This document shows positions 42,517 to 43,864 of a DNA stretch of 44,189 nt, piece after piece. Each line of letters begins with the position of its first letter. Position 1 is the stretch's first letter. Below the pieces are notes generated by a model. The model did not search any database, was not told the DNA's origin, and saw nothing but the letters and a program-made list of their open reading frames with translations. Made by a program: the position numbers and the translations under genes. The DNA comes from Escherichia phage JohannBuxtorf_Bas84: the sequence record PQ850611.1. One strand, 5' to 3'.

Positions 42517-42721
42517 TTGCTTGACTCGCAACCAACATAGGGGCCATACTGCAACCAATCAACGAGAGGAGTAATCAAGATGGCACGTAAAGATATTTGG
42601 GTATTAGCGATCTGGACCACCGCGGCTTTTATCGGCATGGTTATTTGCGAATTGATATAGCCCGCCGCCATATGGACCGTGGTATATTGTCCACGGTCCA
42701 CTAATCAGGAATTAATTAAAT

Positions 42722-43864
42722 ATGCACCCGCAAACTAAAATTACCGATGAGCAATTGATCGCAGAAATTCAGGCAGGGACTACGGTTAAAGATATTGCGA
42801 AGAAATACGGGATTGCCCTACGCAATGTTTATATGCGGAAAGCCCGCCTATCGAAAAAAGGCATTGGACACGGCAACGATGCCGTAATCCGCAAGCGCGT
42901 TGCCGATGGCTTTGGGGTTAAGCGCGTATCGGCCCTGGTGCGCGGCAATGGCGAAGAGGTCATGTCGTGGGTTATCACTGAGCAGGACAAGGAGCGCCAA
43001 CTCGAAGCTATGCGCGCTGTTGTCGAGGGTATGAACAGCGAAATCACACCGGCAGCGCCAGTAAAATCCCCGCCAGTACCGATCCAGGCGCTTGACTTAC
43101 TCAACCTGTACACCGTGTCAGACTTCCACCTGGGCATGTTGGCATGGGGCGAGGAGACTGGCGAAGACTGGGATATGGCGATCGCCGAAGACCTGTTTTA
43201 CCGCTGGTTTGTCGAAGCCTTCGCACGCGCACCGGACGCAGGCACTGCCGTAATTAATATTCTCGGTGATATGGCGCACTTTGATAGCCTCGATGCCGTC
43301 ACCCCAGCCAGCGGGCACGTACTGGACGCGGATACTCGCTACCAGAAGCTGGTCCGCTACATGATTCGCATGGTGCGCAACGTGGTGGAACTGGCGCTGC
43401 AAAAACACCACAAAGTCAAACTGCTAATCGTCCAGGGGAATCATGACGAGTCTGGTATGATTTGGCTGGCTGAAATGTTCAATACGCTGTACGAGAACGA
43501 GCCACGCGTCGATGTGGATACGTCCCCGGACGTGTACAAAATGGTGCAACACGGTAAAACCACGCTGTTCTTCCACCACGGGCACAAAGCACGTTTTGAC
43601 GCTATTGAAACCGTCATGATTTCCAAATTCAGACAGGCTTTCGGGTCCAGCGAGTACAGCTACGCACACGTAGGCCACTTGCACCACCAGAAGATTGTAG
43701 AATCCCGCAACATGATTGTTGAACAGCACCGGACCCTAGCCGCGAAAGACGCATATGCCAGCCGCGGCGGTTGGATGTCCGGTAGAAGCGCCAACGTAAT
43801 CACCTACAGCGCCAACTACGGCGAAGTAGCGCGCTTAACCATTAGCCCGGAAATGTTGAAATGA
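42722..43864 (+). CDS. HTH + calcineurin-like metallophosphoesterase protein
   Basis: 380 aa; N-terminal HTH-like TVKDIAKKYGIALRNVYMRKARL; metallophosphatase motifs VSDFHLG, LGDMAHFD, QGNHDE, FHHGH, HVGHLHH. Confidence 0.65.
   Translation: MHPQTKITDEQLIAEIQAGTTVKDIAKKYGIALRNVYMRKARLSKKGIGHGNDAVIRKRVADGFGVKRVSALVRGNGEEVMSWVITEQDKERQLEAMRAVVEGMNSEITPAAPVKSPPVPIQALDLLNLYTVSDFHLGMLAWGEETGEDWDMAIAEDLFYRWFVEAFARAPDAGTAVINILGDMAHFDSLDAVTPASGHVLDADTRYQKLVRYMIRMVRNVVELALQKHHKVKLLIVQGNHDESGMIWLAEMFNTLYENEPRVDVDTSPDVYKMVQHGKTTLFFHHGHKARFDAIETVMISKFRQAFGSSEYSYAHVGHLHHQKIVESRNMIVEQHRTLAAKDAYASRGGWMSGRSANVITYSANYGEVARLTISPEMLK

Follow-up and report, generated by a model that had tools for sequence, protein, structure and literature searches.

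The nearest described counterparts of the gene considered here are metallophosphoesterases (MPEs)—Mre11 and SbcD, the binuclear MPE nuclease subunits of Mre11-Rad50 and SbcCD; NinI, the lambda protein phosphatase; and Gp48 of mycobacteriophage A10ZJ24. Gp48 is the one experimentally studied phage MPE that we found in the literature; it is an early-expressed protein with the five motifs and phosphodiesterase activity, which harms host DNA and weakens host defence (PMC12287305). Here we describe a gene of the virulent Dhillonvirus Escherichia phage JohannBuxtorf_Bas84 (sequence record PQ850611.1; the whole stretch analysed, 44,189 nucleotides, is called the window), located at 42722–43864 on the plus strand and encoding a 380-residue fusion of a helix-turn-helix (HTH) domain with an MPE, together with the perfect inverted repeat that precedes it. 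We lean towards a reading in which the conserved signal ahead of the gene is an extended -10 promoter of host type and the product is an HTH-tethered, Mre11/SbcD-like phosphodiesterase acting on nucleic acid.

An initial annotation of this DNA had claimed a complete set of calcineurin-like phosphoesterase motifs, and homologue alignments of 64 and 128 sequences (32–50% identity) confirm it, with invariant metal ligands. The binuclear MPE core spans codons 123–380 (43088–43861, plus strand) and contains the motifs DxH (D134-x-H136), GD (G182-D183), GNHD (G239-N240-H241-D242), H (H285-H286-G-H288), and GHxH (G318-H319-x-H321). Conservation in both alignments is complete or at least 90% for D134/H136, G182/D183, N240/H241/D242, H286, and H319/H321; likewise invariant or nearly so are H186, D188, T194, P195, D202, D204, and R206, in a loop that is disordered in the structural model. 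That model, made with AlphaFold2 on the 128-sequence alignment (pLDDT 84), places three helices at the N-terminus, then a beta-hairpin (64–88), a helix (90–106), and the MPE core (123–380), which has the beta-sandwich MPE fold.

The N-terminal domain is a three-helix HTH at codons 9–45 (42746–42856, plus strand; helices 9–17, 22–29, and 33 to 44 or 45) of the resolvase, LuxR-GerE, or sigma-70 region 4 type. Because the model agrees with Pfam HTH matches in most homologues (HTH_1 in 67 of 128), the HTH–phosphoesterase fusion proposed in the initial annotation is upheld; the N-terminal segment did not prove to be a fold foreign to DNA binding. The HTH is the least conserved part of the protein, whereas the metal ligands and many other residues of the catalytic domain are invariant across more than 100 sequences. 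Between the two lies a beta-hairpin and helix linker (codons 64–106; 42911–43039, plus strand) with invariant S70 and W83 and the consensus KGxSTLY...QWVK, to which no family could be assigned. Other searches were uninformative: a single-protein sequence search of the PDB gave spurious matches to designed repeat proteins only, a profile search gave marginal HTH matches and no usable MPE match, NCBIfam, PADLOC, and Rfam held nothing meaningful, and an exact-protein look-up with the window protein found no match.

Among known systems the MPE fold appears closest to Mre11/SbcD, yet identity is only 13–16% and other MPE subfamilies score nearly as high. The C-terminal capping domain of Mre11/SbcD is lacking in the window protein, which has no room for one, and no Rad50/SbcC partner accompanies the gene—its neighbours in the window are open reading frames (ORFs) of 26 and 70 amino acids, and no SbcC/Rad50-like gene is annotated in the genome of phage McMelon. 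Conversely, the HTH and beta-hairpin modules have no counterpart in Mre11/SbcD. Gp48 has its motif I at residue 10, hence no N-terminal HTH, unlike the window protein (PMC12287305); by analogy it is a plausible role model for the window protein, not an established homologue, and mycobacteriophages are absent from the ten commonest organism names and the matches listed in a tblastn survey for the family. NinI belongs to the MPE superfamily too, in a different subfamily and without an HTH; some relatives of the window gene share its slot directly before Q. The GDxHG, GDxVDRG, and GNHE signatures of the PPP phosphatases were not found, and the PPP fold is distant. Serine resolvases and the free-standing NUMOD/HTH homing endonucleases are also HTH-tethered, but their catalytic domain is a serine recombinase, HNH, or GIY-YIG domain rather than an MPE, and the domain order of resolvases is the reverse of that seen here.

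Taken as a whole, the product is a three-part protein: a resolvase/LuxR-like HTH that we infer tethers it to DNA, a beta-hairpin/helix connector, and an Mre11/SbcD-like binuclear MPE. Such an enzyme would most likely be a metal-dependent phosphodiesterase on nucleic acid—a DNA-directed nuclease or an end-processing enzyme—working in phage DNA metabolism or host takeover with no Rad50/SbcC partner. The initial annotation had left the choice between nuclease and phosphatase and added self-regulation through the palindrome; its domain reading holds and can be narrowed towards a nuclease or phosphodiesterase, while the self-regulation lacks support, as set out below.

The gene belongs to a large family. 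PHROGs assigns it to phrog_704, 'DNA repair exonuclease' (E 3.3e-161; residues 5–380 against profile positions 2–390 of 390), and it is a typical member. In Dhillonvirus, Kagunavirus, Jerseyvirus, and Drexlerviridae genomes the family goes under the record names 'calcineurin-like phosphoesterase' or 'winged helix-turn-helix domain-containing protein'. Databases give members conflicting names ('DNA repair exonuclease', 'phosphoesterase', 'transcriptional regulator', 'DNA polymerase small subunit'), and the phrog_704 name is an annotation transfer. Clustering at 90% leaves 3,717 matches, and a metagenomic library has 4,666 clusters at 50% identity, nearly all of 370–420 residues; the tblastn survey found a homologue in about 2,070 of 50,697 deposited phage genomes (about 4%), including Dhillonvirus, Kagunavirus, Jerseyvirus, Drexlerviridae, and Vibrio and Rhodobacter phages.

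Across the family the location of the gene varies, always at the junction of DNA-metabolism and late genes. In Dhillonvirus and one lambda-like contig it stands between lysis and terminase genes; the T1-like phage Sd1 has it after helicase, VRR-NUC, and small ORFs and before holin. In Kagunavirus and Jerseyvirus (Guernseyvirinae) the homologue belongs to a short cassette embedded among the tail genes and oriented against them: in K1H (L191, 3103–5661) it is followed by an overlapping HAD_PNKP phosphatase gene (E 8.5e-21) and an ATP-binding protein, a cassette that looks like an end-processing module, and in the Jerseyvirus Salmonella phage TUMS_E4 (L190, 3247–6182) by an HNH homing endonuclease and a Roi-like DNA-binding protein. 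At about 50% identity, many relatives have the gene's stop overlapping the start of a gene for a Q antiterminator (PF06530, E 5e-13), a RusA-like protein, or an HNH protein; the overlap with Q (ATGA; Q of 117–121 residues) is seen in L097, L102, L107, L108, L116–L120, L123, and L125, where the gene mostly ends at about 4110–4130. This is the slot that NinI holds in the lambda nin region, immediately before Q. The translationally coupled downstream gene is highly variable across the family, and the contexts in Sd1 (helicase and VRR-NUC), K1H (PNKP), and the nin region (Q, RusA-like, and HNH) fit a role in nucleic-acid metabolism.

Two other functions for the protein deserve consideration. It might primarily be a transcription factor that governs late or lysis genes and uses its phosphoesterase domain as sensor or accessory; the LuxR/sigma-4 type of its HTH and the gene's position at the early–late junction, beside Q, lysis, and terminase genes, suit this idea, and gp58 of phage SO-1 and some other relatives are so annotated in their records. 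We consider it very improbable, given that the catalytic ligands and many enzyme residues are invariant in more than 100 sequences at 32–50% identity while the HTH is the part that varies most, and that scans of the genome turned up no recurring target motif. Alternatively, the protein could be a 2',3'-cyclic or 3'-phosphate end-healing enzyme or a protein phosphatase, an analogue of lambda NinI or of the Clostridium thermocellum Pnkp module—quite an unlikely identity in our estimate, and one to which the NinI-like pre-Q slot of the lambdoid relatives and the overlap with the HAD_PNKP gene in Kagunavirus-like phages, with the ATP-binding protein next, both lend weight. In this role it would join a polynucleotide kinase and a ligase in mending RNA that host anticodon nucleases have cleaved; genes for both partners are present elsewhere in this Dhillonvirus.

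Upstream of the gene, the feature that first draws attention is the perfect 10-8-10 inverted repeat at 42673–42700 (no strand), identified in the sequence and by a repeat finder, in which the fully complementary arms TGGACCGTGG (42673–42682) and CCACGGTCCA (42691–42700) enclose the 8-nt loop TATATTGT. The palindrome noted initially (42674–42699) is perfect as claimed and sits within this repeat, which is one base longer per arm; the ORF list and the repeat coordinates likewise place the end of the right arm 22 nt from the ATG at 42722. The window has no other perfect 10-bp inverted repeat with a 3–20 nt loop; simulated first-order Markov genomes matched in size and composition contain 0.92 such repeats on average, and at least one in 55% of simulations. 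The perfection of the palindrome is therefore not above chance genome-wide and is by itself no evidence of function. Its notable trait is its location, in an intergenic stretch of 60 nt.

What is conserved there emerges from close relatives. Upstream regions were taken from IMG/VR, metagenome, Logan/NCBI, and GenBank sources for proteins that start with MHPQTKIT and are 96–99% identical, giving 48 loci with 27 distinct 75-nt upstream sequences, of which 23 distinct Dhillonvirus haplotypes were aligned; exact-pattern scans of viral and metagenome contigs gave 10 and 5 further loci, largely duplicates. The columns CC.TG.TATATTG are invariant in all 23 haplotypes, as is one G of the right arm; the remainder of both arms and the flanks vary. 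The invariant stretch contains an extended -10 element, TGgTATATT (42680–42688, plus strand; 33 nt before the ATG), made up of the inner 3 nt of the left arm and the first 6 nt of the loop. A TG stands one base 5' of a TATAAT-like hexamer, conserved, intergenic, and ahead of the gene; the element agrees with the extended -10 sigma-70 consensus TGnTATAAT at all eight specified positions save one base of the hexamer and, as is typical of that class, comes without a usable -35, while differing from the class in that the predicted promoter sits inside an inverted repeat. TGNTATAWT sites occur only twice in the 44-kb window, both on the plus strand, intergenic, and each downstream of a terminator. 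Judged by this pattern of conservation, the promoter element rather than the symmetry of the palindrome is under selection, and we infer that it acts as a promoter.

The symmetry itself fares less well. Across ten arm pairs in the 23 haplotypes, 76.5% of cells are paired, against 71.8% with shuffled partners and 30–55% in slid registers; an A:T pair (columns 18–39) is broken in 11 of 23 haplotypes and a T:A pair (22–35) in 13, and the outermost pair is T:A in 3, G:C in 8, and unpaired in 12. For L003, L007, and L015 the folding of the upstream region is on a par with that of shuffled sequence (z 0.02 to -0.54), while their proteins are 97–99% identical to that of the window and their HTHs identical. 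Because near-identical proteins occur without the hairpin and pairs are often broken, the arm symmetry is, as far as these alignments indicate, partly conserved, lineage-restricted, and dispensable for the gene. Nor is there a family-wide excess of upstream palindromes: when the best upstream inverted repeat was compared with shuffles in 64 non-redundant lineages, p was at most 0.05 in 5 and its median was 0.50. Other lineages have different repeats at the equivalent place (TAGGAcaaaTCCTA in a group of about 76% protein identity, TAAATAAGActctTCTTATTTA in one of about 73%). The idea that the recognition helix tracks these repeats was rejected, one repeat being common to phages with different helices.

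These data bear on two functions for the palindrome and on a more elaborate one. The initial annotation took it for an operator; an HTH-phosphoesterase dimer bound to both arms would repress its own -10 element and limit a potentially toxic nuclease. The dyad does overlap the gene's own candidate promoter, its arms exactly straddling the -10 element, and the HTH is genuine, its class being one whose dimers bind inverted repeats. HTHs of the resolvase type contact the outer ends of sites some 28 bp long, and the dyad is likewise 28 bp; a single genomic copy suits a purely autogenous site, and the T:A/G:C covariation of the outer pair and a pairing above the shuffled and slid controls point the same way. 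We nonetheless regard autoregulation as unlikely, and the self-regulation once proposed finds no support: the dyad is not co-conserved with the DNA-binding domain, the symmetry being absent from the L003, L007, L013, and L015 types despite their identical HTH and 97–99% identical protein; two inner pairs each fail in roughly half of the haplotypes; the invariant part is the TGnTATATTG of the extended -10 element; recognition-helix variants do not follow the repeats of other lineages; palindromes are not enriched across the 64 lineages; and many relatives have the gene inside an operon with no intergenic space. The alternative that the repeat is an RNA element, a hairpin in read-through transcripts from an upstream promoter (P1, below) that would mark the junction of small ORF and MPE gene for processing, stabilization, or pausing, draws on the stability of the fold (-20.9 kcal/mol, z = -3.7) and on the finding that intact hairpins mostly lie just after the end of an ORF, degenerate ones mostly just after a terminator. 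Shared ancestry of recombination modules can, however, explain this correlation with upstream content; covariation is weak, with few G-U or compensatory changes; the hairpin leaves the ribosome-binding site (RBS) free; and the stem is followed by ACTAATCAGG and no U-tract, thus not forming an intrinsic terminator, in keeping with a terminator scan that was negative on both strands and an Rfam search of the region that matched no family. We rate its probability as low.

More speculative is the idea that a dimer of the enzyme binds the 28-bp dyad in resolvase-like geometry, with the HTHs on the outer GGACCG/CGGTCC arms, at a spacing of about two helical turns, and the MPE core on the AT-rich centre. 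The enzyme would then be a self-limiting site-specific nuclease or an autorepressor, and the dyad a lineage-specific version of targets that vary among phage lineages; we hold this to be highly improbable. If true, it would define a new class of sequence-targeted metallophosphoesterase nucleases, widespread in tailed phages. Scans of the window found no second copy of the GGACCG-N6-24-CGGTCC layout and no enrichment of the half-site, and no target motif for the HTH could be derived from the half-site, layout, or upstream-palindrome scans. A pair of 17-nt self-palindromes, ATCAGATTAAATCTGAT (22389–22405 and 22431–22447), was considered as HTH operators and rejected as a coding repeat; it belongs to a 42-nt in-frame tandem repeat (…TDQIKSDTQAIKDQ…) in a 607-codon tail-fibre ORF (21809–23632). 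In L037 and L067 we observed, about 90–140 nt 5' of the gene, several copies of GGAATAAT/TTATTCC, including a 9-bp inverted repeat TTATTCCAC...GTGGAATAA; the array looks iteron- or operator-like in that lineage.

Several observations weigh against our preferred reading, that of an extended -10 promoter driving an HTH-tethered, Mre11/SbcD-like enzyme. The window protein falls under the Pfam gathering cutoffs (Metallophos 20.1 against 21.5 bits, Metallophos_2 22.1 against 27), its HTH matches are sub-threshold as well, and Metallophos reaches E<=0.01 in 40 of 128 homologues; the protein is a member of a divergent MPE subfamily. The literature yielded no transcription-start, binding, or enzymatic data for any family member, and no transcriptome of this genus. 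TGgTATATT has no recognizable -35, and a generic promoter scan made no call there. The outermost pair covaries from T:A to G:C, and the overall pairing and covariation score lies above all 500 shuffles and every slid register; there may be some selection on arm symmetry in part of the genus. Finally, the association with PNKP-type genes could equally suit RNA-end healing.

The surroundings of the gene look like an autonomous promoter–gene–terminator cassette. On the sequence evidence, 42491–44101 would be a self-contained transcription unit with intrinsic terminators at both ends. The first (42491–42512, plus strand, from a terminator scan) has an 8-bp GC-rich stem and a T-run and ends the lysis cassette; it is kept in relatives and annotated as a terminator in phage PTXU06. 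It is followed by P1 (42521–42550, plus strand), a sigma-70-like candidate identified by consensus match only (TTGACT, 18 nt, CATACT; 9 of 12 consensus matches), and by an ORF for a hydrophobic peptide of 26 amino acids, MARKDIWVLAIWTTAAFIGMVICELI, read from the sequence (42580–42660, plus strand; a good RBS, GAGAGG), which has no PHROG match. P1 is kept in most close relatives, and in others it and this ORF are cleanly deleted together; differences in the ORF between relatives are synonymous or conservative, and it is absent or truncated in several. The McMelon record annotates instead an overlapping 35-codon frame with a TTG start (window 42597–42704) that crosses the palindrome; judged by the substitutions, the 26-codon frame is the better candidate.

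The palindrome would then enfold the proximal promoter of the unit, its G+C-rich right arm serving as discriminator and start region. Transcription by host sigma-70 RNA polymerase would begin near 42695–42697 and produce a leader of about 26 nt with the Shine-Dalgarno sequence AGGA (42707–42710, plus strand; 11 nt before the ATG), which lies in the block AATCAGGAA, invariant or nearly so among the haplotypes. In this lineage the arms may do no more than tune the promoter or fold into a hairpin in P1 read-through RNA. Downstream, a 70-amino-acid ORF (43861–44073, plus strand; phrog_20931) begins in a 4-nt overlap (ATGA) with the stop of the MPE gene; it is present in many Dhillonviruses and absent from SECphi18, L003, L008, and L013, where the small-terminase gene (terS) is directly next. 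The unit ends at a second intrinsic terminator (44081–44101, plus strand; terminator scan), after which a motif scan places the second extended -10 element, TGTTATAAT (44112–44120, plus strand), before terS, whose start lies beyond the window end and was located from BF9 and McMelon. TGTTATAAT was found in every retrieved relative whose sequence spans the site. Several deposited or IMG genomes terminate at ...GTGCCTGT within this element, probably a shared record-start convention.

The 1.9 kb around the palindrome is 91–96% identical to many Dhillonvirus genomes (HK578/SO-1-like virulent E. coli siphophages); McMelon, whose genome is 95% identical, matches at the same coordinates (42300–44189). 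The gene order is helicase-primase, small ORFs, terminator, holin and endolysin, terminator, the unit described here, terminator, and small and large terminase. A small-terminase role for the gene, suggested by its N-terminal HTH and its position near terL, was rejected, with a separate terS annotated directly downstream in relatives and an enzymatic fold. Two further identities were discarded: a 'phosphatase' beside Ksap1, a Dhillonvirus protein sensed by KpAvs2 (PMC11564622), and an anti-Tmn gene (PMC11846954), neither paper mentioning a phosphoesterase or exonuclease. In McMelon (L188, 24773–25927, minus strand) a 73-codon ORF between genes for a DNA methyltransferase and a polynucleotide kinase/phosphatase, with a ligase-like gene adjacent, fits Ksap1 by its published description only (PMC11564622).

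The gene is a typical member of a catalogued phage family—one of the commoner functionally uncharacterized enzyme families of enterobacterial siphophages, with homologues in T1-like, Jersey-like, K1-like, and Dhillonvirus phages that therapy collections use. As regards the palindrome the outcome is deflationary, and it cautions against reading such a repeat as an operator. For the family the results narrow the question: the HTH is genuine, the active site is intact and resembles that of Mre11/SbcD, and the gene has its own predicted promoter of host type. The candidate roles are accordingly attack on host DNA or counter-defence, as with Gp48, or end processing together with a polynucleotide kinase.

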